In this document: piece after piece, positions 9,496 to 32,686 of the stretch
Position numbering within the stretch: position 1 is the first letter of the stretch
Layout of the letters: each line of letters starts with the position of its first letter
From: an uncultured Methanobrevibacter sp.
Lineage (GTDB): Archaea > Methanobacteriota > Methanobacteria > Methanobacteriales > Methanobacteriaceae
Assembly: GCA_964418715.1 (NCBI GenBank)
Contig: CAYQMW010000003.1
Span: forward strand, 1-32,954
Length of the DNA stretch: 32,954 nt
Direction of reading: 5' to 3'
The notes under the pieces: generated by a model
Database searches by the model: none
Told to the model about the DNA's origin: nothing
Seen by the model: only the letters and a program-made list of their open reading frames with translations
Position numbers and translations under genes: made by a program

Positions 9496-9666
9496 ATTGC
9501 CACCTACACATATATTTAAAGCAAAATCTTACTTTAAAAATTATGCAATCAAATTAAGTTTAAAAATTAAAATTATAGTAGTGATTTTAAAATTAATTAA
9601 AATTACTATAAAATATCAAAATTATTAAGTAAATAAGTAAATTTCAAAACATCTATTTAAAGATGT

Positions 9667-10086
9667 ATTTCAAGTGTAAAAAAGTTGTAATTTTTTAAAA
9701 AAAATAAAGTACAACTGCAAGTGTAATATTGATATTTATCTTTTATAAATATTTCTATATTTTGAATTTTTCACTGACAGTGTGTGAGATATATTTCAAG
9801 TGTATGCAACATTTGTAAAAAATGAAAATCATAAGGTGCATTTCAAGTGTAAAATTTTTTAAATATTTTCATATGAACATGTGATAGATTTTTGAAAATT
9901 TTTAGTGAGAGATAAAAATTATGATTTTTACAGTGGAAATATACCCCTTAAGTCATAGTATATCCTCGAATATGTTTCACTGGAAATACCTCTCTCACAC
10001 TGGAAGATTAAAAAATCATATTAAAAAAATAAAATTATAATCTTTAAAATTTCATAAAAAATTATTAAGTACAATTTCAAGTATAA
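9667..10086. other. Probable chromosomal replication origin (oriC) with mini-ORB repeats
   Basis: 13-bp elements related to TTACACTTGAAAT. One orientation: 9667-9679 ATTTCAAGTGTAA, 9714-9726 ACTGCAAGTGTAA, 9773-9785 (degenerate), 9793-9805 ATTTCAAGTGTAT, 9840-9852 ATTTCAAGTGTAA, 10074-10086 ATTTCAAGTATAA. Opposite orientation: 9928-9940 TTACAGTGGAAAT, 9975-9987 TTTCACTGGAAAT, 9995-10007 TCACACTGGAAGA. All lie in a ~890-bp intergenic region directly upstream of cdc6. Confidence 0.9.
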
Positions 10087-10384
10087 AAGAGAAATTTTTA
10101 CAACATTTTTTTAATAAATATATTAAAATTTTAGTCAAATAGAAAAATAAAATATAAAATGTTATCATATCAGATTATCTATTATATTTCAAATTTTATA
10201 CATAATATAATAACATAATAAATAAATAAAAATAATAAATAAAAATAGTAATAAAATTAAAAAATAGAATAATAATAAAAATAAACATATATTATTAATT
10301 ATATTAACAATTAATAAATTATTATTATTTAATATAATAAAATATTAATTATTAATTATTTATATTAAAAATAAGATTAAAATA

Positions 10385-13680: not shown

Positions 13681-14886
13681 CTATTTTCTTATAAGGTCAA
13701 TTACTTTTCTTGATGCTTGACCATCATCAAATTCATTGAACTTTTCATTGAATTTAATATATTTATCTCCATAGACTTCTTCATAGGTTTCTAAACGGTT
13801 TTGAATAAATTCAACAAGATCTTTTGTAGTCATACATATTGGACCTGGAACCTCTTCTACCATATCAAAGTAAAAGTCTCTTAGATTATTTTTATAATTA
13901 TCTAAATCATAGGTATAGAAAAGCATAGGTCTTTTTAACAGTGCATAATCAAACATTACAGATGAATAATCAGTAATCATAATGTCAGACACAAGATATA
14001 GTTCCTGTATATCCCAGTCAGCATCACATTCAATTACAAAATCGCCATATTTACTCCAGTCAATATTGTCTTTAACAAGATAATGGAATTTGACAATTAG
14101 ATAATATTCATCTTTAAGATCTTCATAAAGCATGTCAAAGTCCATTTCAGTTGCAAATTTATATTCTCCTTTTTGATAAAATTCATTATCTCTCCAGGTT
14201 GGAGCATAAAGGATGATTTTTTTATCTTTTGGAATGTTTAATTTTGATTTAATATTATCAATGTCTTTTGGATTGTTTTTATTAATTAATATATCATTTC
14301 TTGGATAACCTATCTCAAGCATTTCACCTTTAAAGTCAAATGCACGTCTGAAAATCTCTGATGAGTAGGTATTTTGTGATATAAGATATTGCCACACATG
14401 TGAATTTTTTCTAAAATCATCATGATATTGGGTTATGTCCTGATTTCCGCTCATATCAATATAATCCATATCAAGAGCTAATTTTTTAAGTGGTGTTCCA
14501 TGCCAGGTTTGTACATATTTAGTGTTTTTATTTTTTTTAAGATAATACAAGTGTCTTGAATCAAATATCCATGTTCCACTTCTAAGTGTATAATATAAAA
14601 ATCTAAAAAAAGGCTTTTTGACCTTTACCGGATTACCAGGAATTTGTACTTTTGTATTTGTAAGTACCCAAACAGATTTAAACTCCTTATCAAGGCCCTG
14701 GTTTAGGATTTCTTCATAAACAGATTTTGGATTACCAGTATAATTACGGCCATTACTTGATTCAAAAAGGATAATATTTTCATTTGGAGGTATAATATAT
14801 GAAGCTATATAATATAAAGCCCTTGCAGAATATTTAGCACAATTATAAATTATATCCTTTATTTGTTTTTTAAATGTTTTAGCCAT
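13681..14886 (-). CDS. CDP-glycerol glycerophosphotransferase (TagF/TagB family)
   Basis: ILFESSNGRNY.GNP, QTWHGTPLKK, GYPRND, ILYAPTWRD, VKFH and ITDYSSVMFDY. Both catalytic His motifs are present. Confidence 0.93.
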   Translation of the reverse strand: MAKTFKKQIKDIIYNCAKYSARALYYIASYIIPPNENIILFESSNGRNYTGNPKSVYEEILNQGLDKEFKSVWVLTNTKVQIPGNPVKVKKPFFRFLYYTLRSGTWIFDSRHLYYLKKNKNTKYVQTWHGTPLKKLALDMDYIDMSGNQDITQYHDDFRKNSHVWQYLISQNTYSSEIFRRAFDFKGEMLEIGYPRNDILINKNNPKDIDNIKSKLNIPKDKKIILYAPTWRDNEFYQKGEYKFATEMDFDMLYEDLKDEYYLIVKFHYLVKDNIDWSKYGDFVIECDADWDIQELYLVSDIMITDYSSVMFDYALLKRPMLFYTYDLDNYKNNLRDFYFDMVEEVPGPICMTTKDLVEFIQNRLETYEEVYGDKYIKFNEKFNEFDDGQASRKVIDLIRK

Positions 14887-15010: not shown

Positions 15011-15778
15011 TTAACTTTCAAGTTCATCTACTAGTTTTTGAGCATATTCCCAATCATTATGATCATCAATTTCGCTCCATTTTAATCCATTTGTTAGGAC
15101 AAAGTCAATAGGTTTAATTTCACTTAAATCTTTAAATGAAAAATCATAATAGTTTTGAGGATCTTCATTTATTGACTCATTTAAAAATCTATTAAAGTCA
15201 TTAATATCAGATTTAATTACTTTTGATACTCCAATAAATTCACCAGTAGAACTAGGAATATCCAATCCTTTACCGATGGAGTTTATTACCCCATCTGCAA
15301 TGGATTTATCAGAGTTAAAACTTTCATTATCAATAATTAACTTAAAAGATTCTTCATTTAAGTCTTTAAAGTTGTCAATAATCATAGCAGTATTATCTGT
15401 TTTTGCAAGTCTTTTTATAATTAATGGATCTACCACATTATCTCCATTTACTAGGATAAAGTCATCTGGGCTCTCTTTTTCTATATATGTACTTGCAAGA
15501 TAAGTTGAAACAGATGTATTAGTTACATCATATTTTTCATTAGTAATGGTTTTAATTTCAATATTGTATTTATTTTCAAGTTCTTTAGATAAATCTTCTA
15601 CCTTCTTCCCATTATATCCAACTACAACAATGAATTTGTTAATATCTGCATCAATACAGTTTTTTATCATTCTCTCAAGTAAACTTATATTATTTATTTT
15701 AAGAAGTGCCTTTGGAATATCTTTTGTAAGAGGCATTAATCTTGTACCCATACCTGCTGCTAAAATTACACCTATCAT
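15011..15778 (-). CDS. LicC/IPCT-like nucleotidyltransferase (putative polyol-phosphate cytidylyltransferase)
   Basis: ILAAGMGTRL.PLT...PKALL, VVGY, N.KYDVTN, LVNGD, GEFIG and WSEIDDHND. Start moved from 15826 (overlaps gpsA) to ATG 15778, which follows a GTGA SD. Confidence 0.85.
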   Translation of the reverse strand: MIGVILAAGMGTRLMPLTKDIPKALLKINNISLLERMIKNCIDADINKFIVVVGYNGKKVEDLSKELENKYNIEIKTITNEKYDVTNTSVSTYLASTYIEKESPDDFILVNGDNVVDPLIIKRLAKTDNTAMIIDNFKDLNEESFKLIIDNESFNSDKSIADGVINSIGKGLDIPSSTGEFIGVSKVIKSDINDFNRFLNESINEDPQNYYDFSFKDLSEIKPIDFVLTNGLKWSEIDDHNDWEYAQKLVDELES

Positions 15779-15807: not shown

Positions 15808-16773
15808 TTATTCTATATTGCTCCATAATGTTTTAAAAGCTATTTTTGGAGGAATCTGTTTAACAATCACATCATATACAAAATCTACAATTACACTTTT
15901 AGTACCAGTATTTGTACAAATGTCTTTAATAGCCATTATTGAATTTTTACCTTCAAAAACAATACCACTAGCTTTCTCATCAACAATGATTCTCTGACCA
16001 TATAACATACCAAGTGTATGGTTTCTACTTTCTGATGAGGTTGAAGTTAAAACCAAATCACCAAAACCACAATATTCACTTGCTGTTGATGTATTTCCGC
16101 CAAAGGCTTTTATTATATCTTTTGTTTCTCTAAATCCTTTTGTAAGTACTGAATATCTTGCATTTTCATTAATATTCATACCTTCACATATTCCATTAGC
16201 TATTGCATTAATGTTTTTAATTACACCTGATAATTCAAGACCAAGTACATCATCAATAATTTTTACTTTAAAATCATCTGTTTCAAGTGTCTGTTTAACT
16301 ATTTTAGCATTTTTCATATTATATGATGCAATATTTGTAATGGTTGGAAGGTTTAATACAATTTCAGATGCAAAGTTTGGCCCTGAAAGGGCAACATAAT
16401 TATTATCATAATATTCTTCAATGATTTTACCCATTGTTTTAAGTGAAGGATATTCAATACCCTTTGCAGTTGTAACAAGAATTGTATCCTCACTAATTAC
16501 TTCTTTTAAATCTATAAGCATTTCTCTAAAGCCAGATGAAGGTATTGATAAAAAGATAATTTCACATAGTTTTAAGTCGTTTATATCAGTTGTTGCAGTA
16601 ATATTATCTTTTAGCATTGTATTTGGATAATATTCACTATTGTAATGGTTTTCATTTATACTTCTTTTTAGTTCTTCTTTTCTTAAGTAAAGGATTACTT
16701 CATCAACATTTAATGCTACTGTTTGAGCAATTGCTGTTCCTAAACTTCCAGCACCAATAATACCTACCTTCAT
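15808..16773 (-). CDS. gpsA: NAD(P)H-dependent sn-glycerol-3-phosphate dehydrogenase (bacterial GpsA family)
   Basis: GAGSLGTAIA Rossmann motif, AKGIE, LSGPNFASEI, catalytic KN in GVIKNINAIANG, and GFGDLVLT...SRN. Confidence 0.92.
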   Translation of the reverse strand: MKVGIIGAGSLGTAIAQTVALNVDEVILYLRKEELKRSINENHYNSEYYPNTMLKDNITATTDINDLKLCEIIFLSIPSSGFREMLIDLKEVISEDTILVTTAKGIEYPSLKTMGKIIEEYYDNNYVALSGPNFASEIVLNLPTITNIASYNMKNAKIVKQTLETDDFKVKIIDDVLGLELSGVIKNINAIANGICEGMNINENARYSVLTKGFRETKDIIKAFGGNTSTASEYCGFGDLVLTSTSSESRNHTLGMLYGQRIIVDEKASGIVFEGKNSIMAIKDICTNTGTKSVIVDFVYDVIVKQIPPKIAFKTLWSNIE

Positions 16774-16856: not shown

Positions 16857-17987
16857 TTAATCTTTACCTATTTTAGATTTAAAACGACTAGTTAAATTGT
16901 CTTTCTTATAATCAATCCATCCTTTAGTTGATTTAACAGTTTTAATTTCACTTGTTAATCGTTCATTTTGTTTAGAATAATAGTTATAATTTCTCTCTTT
17001 CTCACGTATATAGATTAATTCATCTATTTTTCCTTCAATTAAAAAATCATATTTAATCTTATTAATCATTGTAAGATTTTCAAACAGTTCTTTTGGAAAA
17101 TCTTCAATAATCGGTTTAATATCATTAATTATAAATTCTCTATACTCCACATCACCAATATCGATTTGGTCTATAAATAATCTGTAATCAATTTCAAGTA
17201 ATTTAAAGTGATATGCATCTAGAAGACTCTTATATTTTTCGTCTGATTTAAATAAATCTTCTATTTTGTTTATTATAAAAATACGATCTTCAATATTCTT
17301 TTTATTTGTCCTATCTTGTGTAGTTGATTTATTAGATTTATCTCTTCGACGTCTCCAGTAATATTTTACCTCTGGTAAAACACCAACAGAATCAGTTGAT
17401 GAGAACAGTTCCATTGAAAAGAGTAAGTCTTCATATAATCTGTCAATAAATTCTATATTGTTGTCAACTAAGAGGCTTGTTTTAATTAATTTATTACAAG
17501 GTGAAGTGTCATAGACAAATTCAGGATGTTCTAATATACTGCTTTTAGTTACTTTTTCTTGAATAGATCTCTCATGAAGTTCACTTCCACCTATTATACC
17601 TTTATGGTCAAATCTTACAACATTAAACAGTACCATATCAAGATCATTTTCAAGTGAAAAATTTAGAACCTTTTCATATCCATCCAAATCAATTTTATCA
17701 TCACTGTCCATAAAGGCAATATATTCACCTTTAACATATTTAAGTGCAATATTTCTAGCTATTGCCTGACCTGTATTTTCTTTATTGTATAATACTTTTA
17801 CTCTTTCATCAGATGCAGCATATTTTTCTAATATTTTAGGTGAATCATCACTAGACTTATCATCAATACATATTATTTCAATATCTTTAATGCTTTGATT
17901 TATAAGACTATCTAAACATTCTTCTAGATAAGTAGAGGTATTATATACAGGTACTATAATACTTATTTTTGGATTATCTAAAGACAT
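16857..17987 (-). CDS. Glycosyltransferase family 2
   Basis: ISIIVPVYN, EIICIDDKSSD, ARNIAL, GEYIAFMDSDD, CNKL and YEDLLF. Confidence 0.92.
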   Translation of the reverse strand: MSLDNPKISIIVPVYNTSTYLEECLDSLINQSIKDIEIICIDDKSSDDSPKILEKYAASDERVKVLYNKENTGQAIARNIALKYVKGEYIAFMDSDDKIDLDGYEKVLNFSLENDLDMVLFNVVRFDHKGIIGGSELHERSIQEKVTKSSILEHPEFVYDTSPCNKLIKTSLLVDNNIEFIDRLYEDLLFSMELFSSTDSVGVLPEVKYYWRRRRDKSNKSTTQDRTNKKNIEDRIFIINKIEDLFKSDEKYKSLLDAYHFKLLEIDYRLFIDQIDIGDVEYREFIINDIKPIIEDFPKELFENLTMINKIKYDFLIEGKIDELIYIREKERNYNYYSKQNERLTSEIKTVKSTKGWIDYKKDNLTSRFKSKIGKD

Positions 17988-18109: not shown

Positions 18110-19303
18110 TCATTTAATTTTATCTTTAATATCTCTAATTGGTTTAGTCATTTTCCAGCTTGTTGAGTTTAATATTTCATTTTGTGTTTTTTTAAGTTTA
18201 TTATTTTCTTTGGTTAATTTTCTATTATTTGACCTTAATTTTTTATATTCAGCTTTTAACCTTTTATATTCTTTTATATTCTCATGATACCTTTTTTCTC
18301 TAATTGTTGCACGTTTTATCATTCTTAAGAAATAATTATTTTTAAAATCACCATATTCTATATTATTGAAAAACACATTAAATGGGTAATTATCATTAAA
18401 GAAATTAGAGTTTCTAAAGTTTTTATAAACATCACTGTTTAATAATTCATCTACAACTTCTCTTTTTAGGGTATTATCTTCAAGTTTATCCCTTATTCTA
18501 TTAACATAAGAATAGAGATTATTAGTTATTAATGCTGTAGTCATATATTCATTAATTTCATATTTTTCACATATATCTAACAGGTTTGTATATGCTATTA
18601 AGCTATTTTTAAGCTGTTTTAGATTAATGTTATTTGATACAGACTTATCTTCACCATCTCTAATATTATAGTTATAAACTGAATAATTGTTAATTAATAC
18701 AATCTTTTTTGCTTTAAAATAAGCTTCATTTACAAACAATAGGTCTTGAGCAGAAATATCTTCTCTAAATTTAAGATCATTGTTTAGTATAAAATCTTTT
18801 CTAAAGAGTTTTGAAGCTATTGCAGGAGCAAGATCCATTAATTTTAATTCATTTTGAGAATCAGATACAATTGTAGTCTCACTATCTCCATTTATACTTT
18901 TATCTTTTATAGTATTATCTGAATTTAGACGGGTATATCCTCCAATTGCAATATCAGTATCTCCATCTTGTGAGATTACATTATATAACCTTTCAAGGCC
19001 ATCAGTGTTTAGATAATCATCACCATCTAAAAATAAAACATATTTGGAGCTGGCATTTTTAAGACCAATATTACGTGGTCTTCCTCCATATCCACTGTTT
19101 GTATCTAGATGAATAACTTTAACATTACTAAACTCATCTGCCCACCTGTCAATAAACTCAACACTCTTATCACTTGAAAAATCATCAACAAATATTACTT
19201 CAATATTTGAAAATCCAATACTTTGATTTTTTATACTTTCAAAGTTTTTTTCAATATATTTTTCAAGATTAAAAACAGGTACAATTACTGAAATTTTATA
19301 CAT
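18110..19303 (-). CDS. Glycosyltransferase family 2 with C-terminal coiled coil
   Basis: ISVIVPVFN, VDDFSSD, PRNIGL, FLDGDD and QDLLF, then a K/E/N-rich heptad tail ending ILNSTSWKMTKPIR. Start taken at ATG 19303. Confidence 0.92.
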   Translation of the reverse strand: MYKISVIVPVFNLEKYIEKNFESIKNQSIGFSNIEVIFVDDFSSDKSVEFIDRWADEFSNVKVIHLDTNSGYGGRPRNIGLKNASSKYVLFLDGDDYLNTDGLERLYNVISQDGDTDIAIGGYTRLNSDNTIKDKSINGDSETTIVSDSQNELKLMDLAPAIASKLFRKDFILNNDLKFREDISAQDLLFVNEAYFKAKKIVLINNYSVYNYNIRDGEDKSVSNNINLKQLKNSLIAYTNLLDICEKYEINEYMTTALITNNLYSYVNRIRDKLEDNTLKREVVDELLNSDVYKNFRNSNFFNDNYPFNVFFNNIEYGDFKNNYFLRMIKRATIREKRYHENIKEYKRLKAEYKKLRSNNRKLTKENNKLKKTQNEILNSTSWKMTKPIRDIKDKIK

Positions 19304-19525
19304 CAAATCACACAAGAAATATATTATTAGTAATTTATTTAATTTAATCCTTATAATAATTTTGAATATTCTTAGTTTTTTTAAGTTTAGATTTATGTTT
19401 TTTTAAAATCAGTATTGATAAAATATTTTTTATTTAATTAATTCAATTCATAAATTATAAATTATTTTTTAAAATTAGTCAGATTAAAAAATTGTTAATA
19501 ATTTTATTTTAAAAAAAGAAGGGGT

Positions 19526-19568: not shown

Positions 19569-21569
19569 TTATTTTTTTACAGTTATTTTTACTTTTTTAA
19601 TTGCTTTGTTGTAGTAGTTGTTTGCTGGTGAGCTTATTGTTGCTGTGTATTTTTTAGCTGTTTTTAAGTTGGTTATTTTAAAGGTTGCTTTTCCTTTTGC
19701 ATTGGTTTTTGTAGTAAATGTTTTTCCATTGACTTTTAAGGTTACTTTTGCTGATTTTATTACTTGGTTTTTGTTGTTTTTTAGTGTTATTGTGTATTGT
19801 TTGGTTTTAATGTTTAGTTTGTAAGTTTTTGCACTTGCGATTATTTTTTGTGCAGCTTTTTTAACTGTTACTTTTACAGATGCAGTTGATCCTTTGTAGT
19901 TTGTATCTCCTGTGTATGTGATTTTTGCTGTATAGGTTTTTGGTATGAGTGTTGCAGCATTGATTTTTACCTGTCCGTTTTTATCGGTTGTGTATTTTTT
20001 AGAGCCTCCAAGGTTTACGGTTATTGCTGCTTTTGGTATTACTTTTCCATTTGCATCTTTTAATCTAATTGTTAAATATTTATTTACATTATAAGTGGTG
20101 GTTACAGCACTTGCATAGATTTTACTTGCTATTTGGTTTACTGTTATTGTTGCGTTAGCTGATTTTTCCTCAGGGTATGATGTGAGAGTTAAAACAGCAG
20201 TATATATACCAGGGTTTAAATCAACAATCCAACCTTCACCTGTTAAACCGTAAGCAGTTTCAATTAATTGGTTACCATCATATATTTTTATTGTGGCATT
20301 AATGCCGTTGTAGAGTGTATTGTTTATTGTTAGGTTGAATTGTAGTTTTTCACCTGATTTGTAGCTTGAACTGTAATTGGAGACTATTATTTCTGCAGGA
20401 ATGATTGTTGTGCCTTCGATAGTATTTCCGTTGAATGTACATAAAACTGCATAACCTCCATACATTGCTTTGCCATGTTCTGCGTTGTTGTCTGTAAATG
20501 TACAATTGTATGCATTTACATCCCATAATGCTCCACCCCGTTCGCTTGCGTTGTTTTGTGTGAAAGTTGAGTTGTATGCATTTCCATGTGCTATTGCTCC
20601 ACCAATAAGTCCACCATTATTTTGTGTGAATGTACAGTTGGTTGCATTTCCATAGCATATTCCTCCACCAATAAATGATGCGTTATTTTCTGTAAATGTA
20701 GAGTCATATGCATTACCCATCCATACTGCTCCACCCATTTTTCCACTGTTATTTGTAAATGTACAGTTATATGCATTTGCTAGGAATATTGCTCCACCAT
20801 TTTCATTTGCAGTGTTGTTTGTAAATGTACAGTTATATGCATTAGCTCTCCATACTGCTCCACCATCTTCTGCTGTGTTTCCTGTGAAAGTTGAGTTGTA
20901 TGCATTACCTTTACAAATAGCACCACCATTTACTGCTGTGTTTTGTGTGAATGTACAGTTTATTGCATTACCGGAGTCCATAGCACCACCGTCAAATGCA
21001 GTATTGTTTGTAAAGTTACAATTTATTGCAGTAACTTCACCAACGATAGCACCACCATTATAATATATATCTGAACTTGCATTACCGTTTATAAAATTAA
21101 TATCATGGAATATTACATTTTCTACGGTTACATTGAATATTCTTGCCATGTGGTTTCCATCTAGTGTAACATCATTTCCATAAATAGTTAAAGCACGGTT
21201 AATTATAATTCCATTTTGAAAATTAGAGTCAGATCCATTATTGTAGGTATAATTATTGGATAAATATATTGTAGTATTATCATTACCGTTAATGGTTTCG
21301 TTTAGTTGTGTGAATGTTAATGGTGTGTCGGTTAGTGTAGGTGTCTCTTCACTTTCTGAAACTTCATTATTATTGTTTTCTTCTAAAATTAGTTCATCAT
21401 TTTCATTATTACATGAAACATCATTTTCTTGGATGTTTTCTTCTAAAACAAGTTGTTGATTTTCATTAGTACTAGTCACATCACTTACAGCATCCTCAGC
21501 AGCACTAATGGCCGAGATACTTAAAAAACAAATAAGGCATACTAGTACTAAAAGTGTTTTGATTTTCAT
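19569..21569 (-). CDS. Adhesin-like surface protein (signal peptide, PMP-like beta-helix repeats, Ig-like basic C-terminal domains)
   Basis: N-terminus MKIKTLLVLVCLICFLSISAISAAED, about 10 GGA...FTxN repeats, and C-terminal TTDKNG / KTNAKGKATFKI Ig-like repeats. ATG 21569 follows SD GAGGA; the track start at 21581 is an alternative. Confidence 0.9.
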   Translation of the reverse strand: MKIKTLLVLVCLICFLSISAISAAEDAVSDVTSTNENQQLVLEENIQENDVSCNNENDELILEENNNNEVSESEETPTLTDTPLTFTQLNETINGNDNTTIYLSNNYTYNNGSDSNFQNGIIINRALTIYGNDVTLDGNHMARIFNVTVENVIFHDINFINGNASSDIYYNGGAIVGEVTAINCNFTNNTAFDGGAMDSGNAINCTFTQNTAVNGGAICKGNAYNSTFTGNTAEDGGAVWRANAYNCTFTNNTANENGGAIFLANAYNCTFTNNSGKMGGAVWMGNAYDSTFTENNASFIGGGICYGNATNCTFTQNNGGLIGGAIAHGNAYNSTFTQNNASERGGALWDVNAYNCTFTDNNAEHGKAMYGGYAVLCTFNGNTIEGTTIIPAEIIVSNYSSSYKSGEKLQFNLTINNTLYNGINATIKIYDGNQLIETAYGLTGEGWIVDLNPGIYTAVLTLTSYPEEKSANATITVNQIASKIYASAVTTTYNVNKYLTIRLKDANGKVIPKAAITVNLGGSKKYTTDKNGQVKINAATLIPKTYTAKITYTGDTNYKGSTASVKVTVKKAAQKIIASAKTYKLNIKTKQYTITLKNNKNQVIKSAKVTLKVNGKTFTTKTNAKGKATFKITNLKTAKKYTATISSPANNYYNKAIKKVKITVKK
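20428..21058 (-). repeat. Intragenic tandem repeats, about 10 x 63-66 bp (21-22 aa, GGA(I/V)xxxNAYN(C/S)TFTxN)
   Basis: Recurrent TGTAAATGTACAGTTATATGCATT-like units on the + strand. The translated repeats were counted by eye; boundaries are approximate. Confidence 0.85.
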
Positions 21570-21617
21570 CCTTTTCCTCATTTTTCTTTATCAATTTAAT
21601 AAATATTAATAAAATCT

Positions 21618-22069: not shown

Positions 22070-24397
22070 ATGGCTAAATCTGGATTTTCAATAATCATAT
22101 CTGAAGGAGTATTAAATAAATATTTTAAAGATTTTTTTAAATCTTTTACATCAGATATGGATATATGTTTAGTTTTAAGTGATAAATCTGATGATTTAGT
22201 TTCAGATGATAATTTAGATTATGATATTATTTCAGATACTAATACAGATTATAGAGTAGTTTCAGACAGATTATATTATAATGATTATCCAGATATTAGA
22301 TTATTCGCTGATTTTAATTCAATATTAGAAGAAGATTTTAGTCCTGATACTATCTATTTTATAAGTGAAAATGATTTTGATTTAGTTAAAAATACAAGTA
22401 TTGAAAATAATAATCTAATAGTTATTCCGGGAAATCTTGAAAATAAAGAGTTTATAAATTGGAAAATCTCTCATATGAGGGAATTGATAGGTATTTTTAA
22501 AAATAATTCTTATTTTATTGAAAATTTATTAGTCTATAATATTTATGAGATTATAGAACTTGATTATAGTATATTTGAAAAGTCCAGGTATTTGGAGATT
22601 ATAAGTTCAATAATAAATATTCTAAAATCTGTTTCAAAAGATACAATATTAAATTCAAACTTTTTAAATAATGATATGAAATCATTTTTAATTTTTATTA
22701 AAAACAATCAGGAATATACACTGGATATTAGGGATAAAACAGTTTTATTATATACAGGCGACTATTTAATTGATGATTTGGCATTTAATAATATAAAAAT
22801 AGATATTATTGATTTAAAAGATGGCTTTTTAAGTATTGATGCATATATTAAAAGTAATTTTTACTTGGAAAGTATTAGATTTGAAGCTATTTTAGATAGT
22901 GGAAATTCAAAAGAAAAATTTAACTCTAATCTATTAGAATATCCCTCTACTGACCGTAGAACCTTTAAGTATTTAGGTATAAGTTGGGTATTTTATTATA
23001 ACTTTAATATTCAAATACCAATTGATTATAATAAAACTTATAGAATTGATTTAAAAACCATATTTACCGAATCAGATAATCAGATAACAGTAAATAATAG
23101 TATATCATTTAGAAAACATGGAAATATATCCCATTATACTAATTATACTTACCTAGACTCTAAGATTATAGAGTTTAAAAATAATTCATTTTATTTGTAT
23201 GATTATTCCACATCAAAAGTCTTGTCTTTAGAGTTTAAATCATTACTACGTATTTTAAAATCATCTAAACCATTCTGGTATAAGGCTATTTTCTATAGAA
23301 TACTATATCTTATTTTAAAACCCTTTTATAAAAATAAAAAAATATTCTTATTTGAAGATCGGTCCCATCAGGCTGATGATAACGGTGAAATATTATTTAA
23401 ATATGCAGTTACCCAGGATGATAATATAGATAAATATTTTATTATTGATAAGAATACCTCTGATTATAAGAGATTATCAAAGGATTATAAAAATATAATT
23501 CCATTTAAGTCATTTAAGCATAAAATATTATATCTTTTTGCAGATAAACATTTCTCCAGTCATGTTGATAGGGTATATTTAGATCCATTTGATAGTGAGT
23601 CTCCTGAATTATATAATAGTTTAGCCACATTTAGAAGATATTTCCTCCAGCATGGTGTAATCCAGTCAGACTTATCCCACTGGATTAGAAAATATTATCA
23701 TAATCTTGATTTATTTTTAACCTCATCTAAATATGAAAGAGACTCTATTGTTAATGGCTATTATAATTATGATAGTAATATTGTCCAGTTACTTGGACTT
23801 CCGAGATATGATTATCTTGAAAATAAAGAAGGCCGTAAGGAAATTTTATTTATGCCTACATGGAGAAAGTATCTTAAAACAAAAGAAGATTTCCTCCAAT
23901 CAGATTACTATAAAAGACTTAATAGGTTTTTTAATAATAGTAAACTAAAAGAGGAGCTATTAGAGTATGGCTATAAAATAGTCTTTAAACCTCACTTTAA
24001 TATATTAGAGTATTTGGACTTTTTGGATATTGATGAGGACTATGTTAGACTTGCAGTAGATGAATCATATAGAGATCTTTTCAACAATTCAAACTTACTT
24101 ATTACAGATTATTCATCTGTATTTTTTGATTTTGCATATTTAAAAAAACCAATTATATATTATCAAGAAGCAGATGAGTATCATTTTAATAAAGGTTATT
24201 TTGACTATGAAACTATGGGTTTTGGAGACATCATCAAAGACGAAGATGAATTAGTTGATTTAATCATTTCTTATATGGAAAATGATTGTAAAATGAGTGA
24301 TAAGTATATTATGAGAGTGGAAGACTTTTTCAAATACACAGATAAAAACAATTCTAAAAGAGTTTACAATTGGAGTTTAAATGAAGATAAGCATTAG
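22070..24397 (+). CDS. TagF-family glycerophosphotransferase with an eroded N-terminal region
   Basis: C-terminal half has ADDNGEILF, FLQHGV, GLPRYD, ILFMPTWR, FKPH and LITDYSSVFFDFAYLKKP. It is a paralog of the next gene. Confidence 0.88.
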   Translation: MAKSGFSIIISEGVLNKYFKDFFKSFTSDMDICLVLSDKSDDLVSDDNLDYDIISDTNTDYRVVSDRLYYNDYPDIRLFADFNSILEEDFSPDTIYFISENDFDLVKNTSIENNNLIVIPGNLENKEFINWKISHMRELIGIFKNNSYFIENLLVYNIYEIIELDYSIFEKSRYLEIISSIINILKSVSKDTILNSNFLNNDMKSFLIFIKNNQEYTLDIRDKTVLLYTGDYLIDDLAFNNIKIDIIDLKDGFLSIDAYIKSNFYLESIRFEAILDSGNSKEKFNSNLLEYPSTDRRTFKYLGISWVFYYNFNIQIPIDYNKTYRIDLKTIFTESDNQITVNNSISFRKHGNISHYTNYTYLDSKIIEFKNNSFYLYDYSTSKVLSLEFKSLLRILKSSKPFWYKAIFYRILYLILKPFYKNKKIFLFEDRSHQADDNGEILFKYAVTQDDNIDKYFIIDKNTSDYKRLSKDYKNIIPFKSFKHKILYLFADKHFSSHVDRVYLDPFDSESPELYNSLATFRRYFLQHGVIQSDLSHWIRKYYHNLDLFLTSSKYERDSIVNGYYNYDSNIVQLLGLPRYDYLENKEGRKEILFMPTWRKYLKTKEDFLQSDYYKRLNRFFNNSKLKEELLEYGYKIVFKPHFNILEYLDFLDIDEDYVRLAVDESYRDLFNNSNLLITDYSSVFFDFAYLKKPIIYYQEADEYHFNKGYFDYETMGFGDIIKDEDELVDLIISYMENDCKMSDKYIMRVEDFFKYTDKNNSKRVYNWSLNEDKH

Positions 24398-24573: not shown

Positions 24574-27225
24574 ATGAGTAAAAAATTCAAATTTTCTATT
24601 ATCATTTCTCTTTTTGAGTCTCAATCTTATATTAATGAGTCATTGGACTCTATTATTAATCAGTCATTAAATTTTAAGGATAATGTTCAAATTATTATAG
24701 TAGATAATGGTAGTATTGATAATAGTAGAGAAATTGTTGCTGAATACAAATCTAAATATCCTGATAATATTCTGCTTCTTGATAAAGAGAATGAAGGCTT
24801 TACATCAAGCTGTAATTATGCATTAAAATATGTAGAAGGAGAATATATTAATTTTTTACTTGCTAATGATAAACTTACAAAAAATACATTAAAAGAAGTA
24901 TATACCTTTTTTAACAATCATTATGATGAGATTGATATTGTAAATCTTCCTGTTATAATCTTTTCAAAACAAATGAGTAAGAATTTATTAGAATATTTAG
25001 ATTTAGATAAGCAACTTTTAGTTAATCTTGATGATGAACCTGTCAAATCTATTTTACCATATTACAGTAATTTTATTAAATCAGATTTAATTAAGGATAT
25101 TGAGTTTGATACTGATTTGGTTAGTGGAGCTATTGATCTTGTAATTGCTGAAATTTTACTTAAAAAAAGAGTTTACGGTGCTGTAAATACATCAAGATAT
25201 CTATTTAGAAAAAGAAATACTGATGACAGGTTTGTTGAAGATTCTCTTTCAAAGAGAAATTTTACAGAGAAAATTAAATTGTTTTACCTTAAACTAATAG
25301 AGATTTCCAAAGATAGTAAAGGTAATGTTCCTTATTTTATACAACATATAATTGTTAAACAACTGACAGAAATTGTTTTAGTAGAAGATTTATGGGACTA
25401 TTTAGATACTCAAGAAGAAATTGACGAGTTTTGGCAGTACTTTAATCAGATTTTACCAATATTTGATGAAAAATTTATTTTCTCAGATAAAAAGGTTAGA
25501 GACAGTGTAAAATCATTTTTAATTTATTTGAAAAACAAAGAATTCCATATAGAAACATATCCTGAAAAACATGAGGTTTACCTTAAATCTAATGATTATA
25601 TAATTACTCAACTTCACAGACATGTTATCCGTTTTGATATTGTAAATTTACATAATGGAGTTTTAAACTTTTCAGGAAGTGTCCTCTGCCGTTGTGATAA
25701 TCAGGCATTTCATATTGAAGCTGTTAAAACAGATGAAAACGGAAATGAATCTGTTTATAAAGGTAAATTCTTTGAATATGTAACTACTGGCCGTAAATCC
25801 AGGAAGTTTTTAGGTATTTGGTGGAATTATTATCATCATTTTGATGTAAGTATTCCAGTAGAATCTGATAATAAATGTCAAGTTAATTTCAGATTAGTTT
25901 ATACTGAAAATGGTGAAAATATTGTAATGGACAATAGAATCGGTTTTAGACAATTTCCGGGAATGTCAAACTTTAATAATTACTTTGTAAAAGAGTCCAA
26001 AATCCTTTACTTTAAACTTAAAACATTCTACTTAGAACCATTTTCATACAGAAGAATGCTTCCATTAGAGGCATTTTCACTAGCAAAAATTACTCTTAAA
26101 AAGGAAAAGGATTTAAAATTAGGATTATTTTATAAGTTATCAAGATTAGCATTATTCCCATTTATGAATAATAAAAATATTTGGCTATTTATTGATAGAG
26201 CAGAATTTGCAGATGATAATGCAGAGATATTATTTAAATATGCATATGAAAAGGATGATAATATTAGTAAATATTTCCTTATCAATGAAGATAGTCCAGA
26301 TTATGAAAGATTAAAAGCCGATTATGGTAGTAGTATTGTTCCGTTTGGATCTTTTAAACATAAAATTCTTTATTTCTTTGCAGATAAAATCATGTCTTCA
26401 CAGATTACAAGAAGTCTTATAAATCCATTTGCATATAAAAATACATATATTTTTGAAGGACTCTCATCACATGAGTATTGTTTTATACAACATGGAGTAA
26501 TTTTACATGACTTGTCAAGTTGGATTAGAAAATATAACAGACAAATGCTTCTATTTGTTACAACTGCACCACTTGAACGTGATTCTATTGTAAATGGATA
26601 CTATAATTATGGTGAAGATGTTGTTCAAGCTTTAGGTCTTGCTAGATATGACAATTTAGTAGATGATGCAAAAAATGAAATACTCTTTATGCCAACCTGG
26701 AGAAGAAAACTGGATACAGAAGATCAATTTATTAATTCAGATTACTTTAAATACTTGAAAAGTTTCTTAAATAATGATAAATTAATTGATTATCTTGATG
26801 AGAAAGGTTATACCTTAGTATTCAGGCCACATCCTAATTTGTGGAAGTTTATAGATCTATTTGATTTAAACGATAAAATTAAAATTTCAGATGTGCCATA
26901 CAGGGACATGTTTAGAGATGCATCACTTATGGTAACTGATTACTCTTCAGTATTCTTTGATTTTGCTTACCTTAAAAAACCTGTTTTATATTATCAAAGT
27001 GAATCATTTGATGATTTCCATTATGGTAAAGGTTATTTTGACTATGAAACAATGGCCTTTGGAGAAATTGTTCACAATGAAGATGAACTTGTTGAAATGA
27101 TTATGGAATATGTGGAAAATGATTGTAAAATGAAAGATGAATATAAAGATAAGGTAGATAAATTCTTTAAATTCAATGATAGAAATAATAGAAAAAGATT
27201 ATATGATTGGATTATAAGTCATTAG
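24574..27225 (+). CDS. GT2-like / TagF-family glycerophosphotransferase fusion
   Basis: N-terminal GT2-like fold (FSIIIS, SLDSIINQS, IIVDNGSIDNS, GEYINFL). C-terminal FIQHGV, GLARYD, FMPTWR, FRPH and VTDYSSVFFDFAYLKKP. Confidence 0.9.
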   Translation: MSKKFKFSIIISLFESQSYINESLDSIINQSLNFKDNVQIIIVDNGSIDNSREIVAEYKSKYPDNILLLDKENEGFTSSCNYALKYVEGEYINFLLANDKLTKNTLKEVYTFFNNHYDEIDIVNLPVIIFSKQMSKNLLEYLDLDKQLLVNLDDEPVKSILPYYSNFIKSDLIKDIEFDTDLVSGAIDLVIAEILLKKRVYGAVNTSRYLFRKRNTDDRFVEDSLSKRNFTEKIKLFYLKLIEISKDSKGNVPYFIQHIIVKQLTEIVLVEDLWDYLDTQEEIDEFWQYFNQILPIFDEKFIFSDKKVRDSVKSFLIYLKNKEFHIETYPEKHEVYLKSNDYIITQLHRHVIRFDIVNLHNGVLNFSGSVLCRCDNQAFHIEAVKTDENGNESVYKGKFFEYVTTGRKSRKFLGIWWNYYHHFDVSIPVESDNKCQVNFRLVYTENGENIVMDNRIGFRQFPGMSNFNNYFVKESKILYFKLKTFYLEPFSYRRMLPLEAFSLAKITLKKEKDLKLGLFYKLSRLALFPFMNNKNIWLFIDRAEFADDNAEILFKYAYEKDDNISKYFLINEDSPDYERLKADYGSSIVPFGSFKHKILYFFADKIMSSQITRSLINPFAYKNTYIFEGLSSHEYCFIQHGVILHDLSSWIRKYNRQMLLFVTTAPLERDSIVNGYYNYGEDVVQALGLARYDNLVDDAKNEILFMPTWRRKLDTEDQFINSDYFKYLKSFLNNDKLIDYLDEKGYTLVFRPHPNLWKFIDLFDLNDKIKISDVPYRDMFRDASLMVTDYSSVFFDFAYLKKPVLYYQSESFDDFHYGKGYFDYETMAFGEIVHNEDELVEMIMEYVENDCKMKDEYKDKVDKFFKFNDRNNRKRLYDWIISH

Positions 27226-27337: not shown

Positions 27338-28327
27338 TTAAATTGGCTTTGCAATTAAATTATAAACCCCATCTGTGAGTTTATTTAGATATTTAGTTAC
27401 AAGATCTCTTGAAAGTATGTATGTAACTATGACTGCAAGTCCAAATGTTAGTATTAGACATAGTAGTATGTTACTTTTAAGTGAATGTGGTATTATTGCT
27501 TTTAGACATGACATGAAATAGAAATGAAGCAAATATACTGCTAGTGAATTTTTACCGAATTTGGTAAGGAAACAGTTTCTATTTGTCATAAATTTATCAA
27601 ATACCAATACAAGTCCAATTTCTACTACAACCACAATTAATCTTTTAATCATTTCATATAGTAGATTTCCAGAATATGGTTCTGTAAATCTAAATATTCG
27701 AATTTGGAACTTATAACATAGGATAACTGCAAGGATTATAATTAAAATTGATATAATCTTGTAGTGTTTATTGAATAAATTAACTATTTTTGTATATTGA
27801 GTTGTAATATTATTCTTTGTTTGTTTATGGTAGAATCCTACTAAAAATATAGGGAAATATGCAAAAACACGGGTTAATCCTAGTATAGTGGAATTTAGAT
27901 GTATGAATCCTATGCCTATTGCACATATTATTGAAATTAAAATTGGGTATTTGAATTTGTTGAAAATTGGCAGGATCATTTTCATTATAAACAATGCCAT
28001 CAAAAACCATAAACCTGAAGTAGTTGTAAAGAACATATATTGAAAAGGTATATTTTTACTAAAAACGATCCAATTAAAAATCGTGGCTATTATATAAAAG
28101 ATTATATAGGGTACTATTAAACGCTTGAAACTTTTTATACTTTCATCGGGCCCTATTTTTGAAAAATAACCTGCTACATAAAAGAGTAATGGTAAGTTAA
28201 TTACAAGCATCAAATTATGTGGAAACCCACTCAAAACACCTAATATATTAAAATGCATTAATACAATAAGAAATATTCCTATTCCTCTTAAATTATCATA
28301 TTTGTCTAATCTTGTTTTAACTTCCAT
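27338..28327 (-). CDS. Acyltransferase family 3 (OafA-like, multi-TM), probable polysaccharide O-acyltransferase
   Basis: R...YDNLRGIGIFLIVLMH, LPLLFYVAGYF, RLIVPY, LWFL and FGKNSLAVYLLH; about 10 hydrophobic segments. Confidence 0.9.
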   Translation of the reverse strand: MEVKTRLDKYDNLRGIGIFLIVLMHFNILGVLSGFPHNLMLVINLPLLFYVAGYFSKIGPDESIKSFKRLIVPYIIFYIIATIFNWIVFSKNIPFQYMFFTTTSGLWFLMALFIMKMILPIFNKFKYPILISIICAIGIGFIHLNSTILGLTRVFAYFPIFLVGFYHKQTKNNITTQYTKIVNLFNKHYKIISILIIILAVILCYKFQIRIFRFTEPYSGNLLYEMIKRLIVVVVEIGLVLVFDKFMTNRNCFLTKFGKNSLAVYLLHFYFMSCLKAIIPHSLKSNILLCLILTFGLAVIVTYILSRDLVTKYLNKLTDGVYNLIAKPI

Positions 28328-32128: not shown

Positions 32129-32686
32129 ATGAATAAAGCCCTTAAAGCAATACTTATAATTATTTTATTTATAGGTTTTTTTGAAGCTGGATTATTAAGT
32201 TCTTATACAATAGTAACTTCTCAAGTTCCAGATGTAAAAGGTTTAATGGATTTACAATTAGATACTATTGGAAGTATTTTCTCTCAGGAAAATATTAACA
32301 ATGTTGTAATTAGAGATCCAAGCTATATTAATATTACAAATAAAGAGGACTTTACCACTCACCTGAAGGAACAGGCCGGAGTAGATGGAATAGATTATAA
32401 TAATTTAACTGTAGGTACATATGATTCAACAGATGATGATTTAATTCATTTAAATATTACTGCCTATGGATATTCAGCTCCTTCTTCATCTTCATCAGGA
32501 ATCGTATTTAGTGCAACTCCTGACTATAAAATATTAGCTATAGGTACAGCTAATCTAACTTATGAAGGTTATAAGGTTAATATAGATTCTGTTGAAATAG
32601 TTTCTATCTTGAAAATATATAATCCTGATTCAATTGATGTTGGAAATAATCTAAATAATAATACAACATCTGAATATAATTTTTAG
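32129..32686 (+). CDS. Hypothetical membrane-anchored protein
   Basis: N-terminal TM (KAILIIILFIGFFEAGLLSSYTIV), SD GTGA and a clean 185-aa ORF. Confidence 0.8.
   Translation: MNKALKAILIIILFIGFFEAGLLSSYTIVTSQVPDVKGLMDLQLDTIGSIFSQENINNVVIRDPSYINITNKEDFTTHLKEQAGVDGIDYNNLTVGTYDSTDDDLIHLNITAYGYSAPSSSSSGIVFSATPDYKILAIGTANLTYEGYKVNIDSVEIVSILKIYNPDSIDVGNNLNNNTTSEYNF

Follow-up and report, generated by a model that had tools for sequence, protein, structure and literature searches.

A gpsA–cytidylyltransferase–tagF gene cassette in an uncultured Methanobrevibacter, predicted to supply and transfer glycerol phosphate for a surface glycan

Gene content of the gpsA locus

The window (the whole stretch of 32,954 nucleotides that was analysed) is contig C3 of the source genome (G000), whose completeness is 90.95% (about 91%). 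The archaeal host proposed in the first-pass annotation is confirmed by Pfam and NCBIfam profiles for Cdc6, the DNA polymerase II small subunit and TfrA. The host is Methanobrevibacter-like, as the nearest named homologues of the window nucleotidyltransferase belong to Methanobrevibacter. The following genes make up gpsA and its surroundings.

13681..14886, minus strand: TagF-type glycerophosphotransferase, 401 aa, catalytic domain alone (PF04464, E 3e-112)
15011..15778, minus strand: LicC/PntC/IPCT-type (COG1213-like) cytidylyltransferase, 255 aa, predicted to convert CTP and G3P to CDP-glycerol
15808..16773, minus strand: GpsA, NAD(P)H-dependent glycerol-3-phosphate dehydrogenase, 321 aa, predicted to convert DHAP to sn-glycerol-3-phosphate
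16857..17987, minus strand: GT2 glycosyltransferase, co-oriented, 83 bp upstream of gpsA
18110..19315, minus strand: GT2 glycosyltransferase, co-oriented with gpsA, upstream
22070..24397, plus strand: second TagF-family protein, 775 aa, of a different TagF clade from 13681..14886
24574..27225, plus strand: GT2-TagF fusion, 883 aa, candidate sugar/glycerol-phosphate co-polymerase
27338..28327, minus strand: Acyl_transf_3 membrane acyltransferase, candidate glycan O-acetylase

The gpsA gene is intact, as first described. Its open reading frame is whole, with 321 codons and zero internal stops, and the product carries both Pfam domains of the family (the N-terminal Rossmann domain PF01210 and the C-terminal helical domain PF07479) and scores 264.5 bits against NF000942, above the cut-off of 257. 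It is the sole PF07479 match in the source genome. Residues K104, K186, N187, D239, R250 and N251 align with solved G3P dehydrogenases and are invariant in 100/100 aligned GpsA rows, two of which are duplicates; we take this conserved Lys, Lys-Asn, Asp and Arg-Asn to be active-site residues. Reduction of DHAP to the sn-3 enantiomer is predicted from family membership.

The mechanical call for the cytidylyltransferase begins at 15826 and overlaps gpsA. We place the start at 15778, where an ATG follows a GTGAT stretch; this leaves a gap of exactly 29 bp, the spacing given in the first-pass annotation, and close homologues are likewise 255 aa long. The tagF gene, also correctly described there as co-oriented, follows on the same strand, 124 bp beyond the cytidylyltransferase and 921 bp beyond gpsA. 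Its product matches the TagF structure 3l7i with E 6e-93 and the TarL structure 8va1 with E 2e-31, and scores 334.6 bits against the TarF model and 140.9 against the TarL model, both under cut-off. A fourth TagF-family gene of the genome lies on contig C44 and, like the two at 22070..24397 and 24574..27225 and the two GT2 genes, goes unmentioned in the first-pass annotation. It falls in a clade seen beside tarIJ; among its orthologues, the best score is to TarL, under cut-off. Either this C44 enzyme has switched to CDP-glycerol, or it has been orphaned, or tarIJ is unassembled. A scan for promoter and terminator patterns, which are bacterial-type while the host is archaeal, returned 63 matches, compared with 52.7 +/- 6.4 in shuffles.

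Within the glycan locus lies an adhesin-like gene with PMP repeats and Ig-like domains (19569-21581). The orthologous locus in genome G159 holds a 299-aa adhesin-like protein instead, on the other side of tagF. Nine Acyl_transf_3-like ORFs are distributed over contigs C3, C26, C28, C64, C70, C159 and C190 of the source genome, two of them perhaps halves of one gene, which suggests extensive glycan acylation.

The cytidylyltransferase is of the LicC/PntC type

The structure model of the cytidylyltransferase (pLDDT 96.7) finds its best folds in PntC (6pd2, TMq 0.83) and LicC (1jyk). Profile and model group the enzyme with PntC, LicC and inositol-1-phosphate cytidylyltransferase (IPCT), and the fold and motifs are common to COG1213 (LicC, PntC, IPCT, CpgD) at an identity of ~20-23%. 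The pocket residues read E-S-F-K in the window enzyme, E-W-F-L in LicC and E-A-T-K in IPCT. The best TIGR01518 score in the genome is 32.9, against a cut-off of 165.4, and occurs at other loci. Because the fold is of the LicC type and TIGR01518 stays far under its cut-off, the window enzyme is not a TagD (HIGH-fold).

The solved relatives act on phosphocholine, aminoethylphosphonate or inositol-1-phosphate, so the assignment of G3P as substrate rests on context. A further relative uses phosphoglycerate (PMC12275187), and G3P does not appear among the COG1213 substrates listed in the accessible part of that paper. We took the best 150 relatives in a 50%-cluster library and scanned the 23 longest for fusions; eight of these carry a TagF domain, one an Fe-ADH and one a HAD domain. 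Judged by their domain content, these fusions tie the family to polyol-phosphate transfer, and they do not fix its substrate. On this prediction, CDP-glycerol would be made by a second family of enzymes, of the COG1213 type.

A cytidylyltransferase is the constant partner of gpsA in Methanobacteriales

We surveyed 201 Methanobacteriales genomes, which are relatives and hence not independent. gpsA occurs in 79, any PF04464 match in 137 and a close activator match (E<=1e-30) in 53. With strong TagF defined as E<1e-20, a threshold chosen in this analysis, 78 genomes hold both gpsA and strong TagF, one gpsA only, 47 TagF only and 75 neither. As the genomes are related, the Fisher value of this table overstates the association. 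gpsA carriers thus have strong TagF in 78/79 cases, and 1/76 genomes without strong TagF carries gpsA. This one genome is G126, in which the 4.2-kb contig stops just after the activator. gpsA is found in 53/53 genomes that match the LicC-type enzyme at E<=1e-30. In two other families, both thermophile, gpsA and TagF mark identical genomes (5/9 and 4/5), so that the pattern recurs within groups.

Strong-TagF genomes that lack gpsA (47/125) carry TarI in 38 cases, leaving nine unexplained (G029, G033, G038, G100, G108, G115, G151, G182 and G191). TagD was considered as donor enzyme in those nine, and none has a match over the cut-off.

We inspected the neighbourhood of each of the 98 gpsA copies in the order. 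A co-oriented cytidylyltransferase lies within 400 bp of gpsA in 89 of them, namely 53 LicC-type, 28 TarI-type and 8 HIGH-fold fusions. Anywhere in the fetched stretch, the count rises to 96/98 (seven further off), and the other two copies sit at contig ends. Where the nearest partner is LicC-type (n=56), TagF is present in the stretch in 44; where it is TarI-type (n=31), LicD is present in 30 and TagF in only three. Neither TagF nor LicD accompanies the cytidylyltransferase in 13/96 stretches. The constant partner of gpsA is therefore a cytidylyltransferase and not TagF. The link between gpsA and TagF drawn in the first-pass annotation stands at the level of genomes (78/79 carriers) but not at that of neighbours, as the cytidylyltransferase nearest to gpsA is TarI-type in 31/98 copies. 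Similarly, the module once described as self-contained is upheld in that gpsA is tied to CDP-polyol supply-and-transfer genes, but its partner is often a TarI-type enzyme with LicD.

At eight loci (L037, L038, L042, L045-L047, L050, L051), a HIGH-cytidylyltransferase/GFO oxidoreductase fusion and LicD, often with an aminotransferase, directly follow gpsA. As these fusions look like an insert with its own aminotransferase and LicD, we do not claim that they act on G3P; they are possibly a separate CDP-amino-polyol pathway. PEP mutase-cytidylyltransferase fusions adjoin the gpsA-TarI-LicD loci L087, L091, L097 and L099, hinting at phosphonate-modified glycans.

Alternation of glycerol and ribitol supply genes

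In the genus of the window, gpsA and TarI are complementary in 7/7 genomes: gpsA is present without a TarI match in G000, G159 and G234, and TarI without gpsA in G014, G034, G082 and G105. The gene after TarI is a TarJ homologue in 17/17 fetched stretches (E 3e-116 to 6xh9). Given this complementarity and the invariable succession of TarI and TarJ, GpsA plus the LicC-type enzyme takes the slot of TarJ plus TarI. The two systems coexist in genus g5, so that the exclusion is local.

Phylogeny and origin of GpsA

The GpsA tree comprises 59 hand-picked rows (LG+C20), with eight named bacterial references as a thin sampling. A branch at 100/97 sets apart 33 rows as one group, which was defined after a first tree. 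Genomic context is known for 28 of these, and a nearby cytidylyltransferase is present in 27/28, all but a long-branch row from a Bacteroidales MAG. The clade is mostly archaeal, and all eight named bacterial references fall outside it. TarI-partnered copies are nested within it (100/100), and therefore the cytidylyltransferase partner was replaced. The triad at one locus, L213, contains a long-branch GpsA that does not belong to the clade.

Archaeoglobus fulgidus GpsA (1txg) is likewise archaeal and is reported to be an NADP+-preferring G3P dehydrogenase (PMC5059525). It differs in scoring 77 bits to the window GpsA, below bacterial GpsAs. The GlpK-linked clade that we take as its own (Archaeoglobus-type, an inferred label) is separate from the cassette clade in the tree and without the TagF link, and other Asgard copies are separate as well.

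No bacterial donor of gpsA was resolved, and identity to plasmid-borne GpsAs does not exceed 35%. Since bacterial sampling is thin, we claim neither donor nor direction. The GC3 of gpsA (0.124) equals that of housekeeping genes (0.10-0.15), and any transfer is therefore old. An import from bacteria, as first proposed, finds no support, given that the clade is mainly archaeal, that no donor was resolved and that the GC3 is that of the host. On short contigs of G242, two bacterial-like copies of gpsA (L260, L261) group with Fusobacterium and adjoin a TagF-family or TagD-sized gene; contamination is possible, and they were left out as evidence. If bacterial, they indicate that bacteria too place gpsA within such loci.

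Occurrence in other archaea

Among the best 80 of 429 matches in a scan of species genomes, the same triad appears in at least five records outside Methanobacteriales. These are the isolate Methanoculleus nereidis and MAG contigs, which can be misbinned, labelled Baldrarchaeota, Crenarchaeota, Nitrososphaerota and Methanotrichaceae. An EgsA-family match is present in only 3/5 of these triad-bearing genomes.

In the phylum of G252, gpsA occurs in 43/401 genomes, with TagF in 10/43 and absent from 33/43. The triad is seen in 11/45 matches, L134 included. Across 44 stretches from this phylum, a LicC-type gene abuts gpsA in 10 (nine with TagF in view), one is a fragment and 33 have neither a LicC-type gene nor TagF, with a GlpK-like gene in 7/33. 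The phylum of G253 has gpsA in 7/269 genomes, two of the cassette type and five of another type without cassette genes nearby. The first-pass annotation had named gpsA occurring apart from TagF as evidence against its reading; such separation exists in archaea at large (33/43 in the phylum of G252) but not in the cassette clade.

Genome inventory and destination of the product

In the source genome (91% complete), we found no PlsY, PlsC or GlpK, no TarI/IspD or TarJ, and no TagA (PF03808) or LCP (PF03816). LicD, the partner of LicC proper in the phosphocholine pathway, was likewise not found in this genome with a profile built from relatives; together with the differing pocket residues, this sets the window enzyme apart from LicC proper. 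An Fe-ADH_2 gene on contig C46 is EgsA-family, and we take it to be the probable egsA from its Pfam family. Candidate exporters are a Wzm/Wzt pair with rhamnose genes on C44 and five Wzx-like genes. Contig C38 holds a homologue of PF02397-type initiating sugar transferases, and C11 PMT-like membrane transferases. Every cassette protein has a 19-residue hydropathy mean of at most 1.6, which is consistent with assembly at the cytoplasmic face.

Some triad-bearing lineages are not known to have pseudomurein, so the acceptor need not be the wall. As the triad extends outside Methanobacteriales and TagA and LCP were not found, 'surface glycan' is a safer term than 'wall teichoic acid'. The earlier proposal of a wall polymer rather than lipid thus gains from the failure to find acyltransferases (PlsY, PlsC) or GlpK in the source genome, but 'wall' is too narrow.

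A proposed supply-and-transfer cassette

We postulate, with a probability of roughly 0.7, that the three adjacent genes constitute a supply-and-transfer cassette for glycerol phosphate of a surface glycan and not of membrane lipid. From gene identities, gene order, co-occurrence and clade, we infer co-transcription and the following substrates, stereochemistry and product. DHAP would first be reduced by GpsA to sn-glycerol-3-phosphate, from which the LicC-type enzyme would form CDP-glycerol as the donor for TagF, and the latter would attach glycerol phosphate to the glycan. The glycan is likely assembled on a lipid carrier and exported via the Wzm/Wzt or Wzx of the genome, and the product may consist either of single caps or of an extended poly(glycerol phosphate) chain. 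The EgsA-family enzyme encoded elsewhere likely still supplies sn-glycerol-1-phosphate for lipids. The likely reason for carrying gpsA is that TagF-type transferases can depend on an sn-3 donor, a compound that the core metabolism of archaea does not provide. Among TagF-like polymerases, Cps3D shows no activity with pure CDP-1-glycerol, and Cps7D takes both enantiomers (PMC8262930), so the sn-3 requirement is not universal.

The same architecture could serve another molecule, if the GpsA clade reduced another ketose phosphate or the LicC-type enzyme activated another alditol- or amino-alcohol phosphate for TagF or LicD. The activator family is diverse in its substrates (PMC12275187), a nested sub-clade of GpsA pairs with a TarI-type enzyme that exceeds the ribitol-5-phosphate cytidylyltransferase cut-off (275 vs 166 bits), and the cytidylyltransferase-HAD fusion at L121 could rearrange phosphate. 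We nevertheless regard this as unlikely, given that every GpsA sub-type keeps unchanged the residues shared with solved G3P dehydrogenases, that the adjacent TagF is far nearer to solved TagF than to TarL, and that no homologue of the L121-type HAD domain was found in the source genome.

That G3P or CDP-glycerol enters membrane lipid, as head group or bacterial-type backbone, with the TagF link being secondary, appears highly improbable: PlsY and PlsC were not found in the source genome, and gpsA is patchy (79/201) and tracks TagF rather than lineage, down to the same 5/9 and 4/5 genomes of the thermophile families. This holds even though bacterial GpsA supplies lipid G3P (PMC5059525) and a Brevibacillus gpsA adjoins plsY. 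We give as little credence to a cytidylyltransferase that uses EgsA-made G1P and leaves gpsA as a passenger or a redox or catabolic enzyme. One archaeal glycerol-phosphate cytidylyltransferase activity does prefer G1P (PMC8262930, citing Rodrigues 2017), and another archaeal GpsA clade lies by GlpK-like genes in 7/33 stretches. However, all 53 genomes matching the LicC-type enzyme have gpsA, the gene remains whole and next to the cytidylyltransferase whichever of the three partner types is present, and GlpK was not found in the source genome.

The supply-and-transfer cassette for a surface glycan can be extended to a bolder form, which we hold only tentatively and at less than even odds. The product would be a teichoic-acid-like archaeal polymer of poly(sn-glycerol-3-phosphate), made by an old, mainly archaeal multi-phylum cassette with a COG1213 enzyme as non-homologous TagD and an LCP-free anchor, and glycerol and ribitol would be swapped in serotype-like fashion in gut methanogens.

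Relation to known systems and implications

The cassette resembles the supply arm of teichoic-acid synthesis and fails membership of the wall teichoic acid route on TagD, TagA and LCP. With the Gram-positive route, which runs through GpsA, TagD, TagB/TagF, TagGH, TagA and LCP, it has in common a TagF-type transferase, a predicted CDP-glycerol donor and a Wzm/Wzt-type exporter (here on C44). In contrast, the activator here is LicC-type and not TagD, gpsA lies within the locus, the source genome yielded neither TagA nor LCP, and the host is archaeal. The TarI-TarJ ribitol supply pair of many Methanobacteriaceae likewise combines a reductase and a cytidylyltransferase beside TagF-family genes, but with another reductase fold and another predicted polyol, and it alternates with the GpsA pair in the genus of the window. 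A self-contained supply and transfer cassette for glycerol phosphate within a surface-glycan locus is also described for pneumococcal gtp1-gtp2-gtp3-wchX, which differs in using CDP-2-glycerol and yielding glycerol-2-phosphate (PMC1391919). In a Streptomyces record, a LicC-type gene adjoins an Fe-ADH gene, and the two are fused in P0358. If, as we presume, Gtp1 is EgsA-like and Gtp2 LicC-like, the pneumococcal cassette would mirror the archaeal one.

The presence of gpsA in Methanobacteria is already in print: GpsA is reported from Archaeoglobi and Methanobacteria, M. ruminantium included, as non-monophyletic and likely transferred (PMC5059525). Its distribution in archaea is described as sporadic and a role in membrane synthesis as unlikely (PMC6431249). 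M. ruminantium is reported to have homologues of teichoic-acid genes, high wall phosphate and a glycopolymer of no known identity (PMC2812497), and its TagF-type gene is transcribed and induced (PMC5816558). Archaeal gpsA and teichoic-like genes are each published; our literature search, which covered mainly openly accessible papers, found neither a link drawn between gpsA of archaea, a cytidylyltransferase and TagF nor an assay of any enzyme from this clade.

The cassette provides a testable job for Methanobacteria GpsA, so far mainly discussed as evidence on the lipid divide, and argues against reading this GpsA clade as an indication of bacterial-type lipids. It also offers likely genes for the unexplained wall phosphate of Methanobrevibacter. 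The glycan is furthermore a candidate for a variable antigen on the surface of rumen and gut methanogens, which bears on methane-mitigation vaccines and viral receptors.

Other features of the window

An ORF of 185 aa with an N-terminal hydrophobic segment (32129-32686) has no Pfam or NCBIfam match. The window ribB (364-996) scores 254 against TIGR00506 (cut-off 177) and only 77 against NF004437, which we take to be the model of archaeal-type RibB; the enzyme is possibly bacterial-type. The AT-rich gap upstream of cdc6 holds, at 9661-9851 and 10057-10097, three 18-nt repeats with ATTTCAAGTGTA in common (spacing 126 and 47) and related copies. They resemble methanobacterial origin boxes, and this region is probably oriC.
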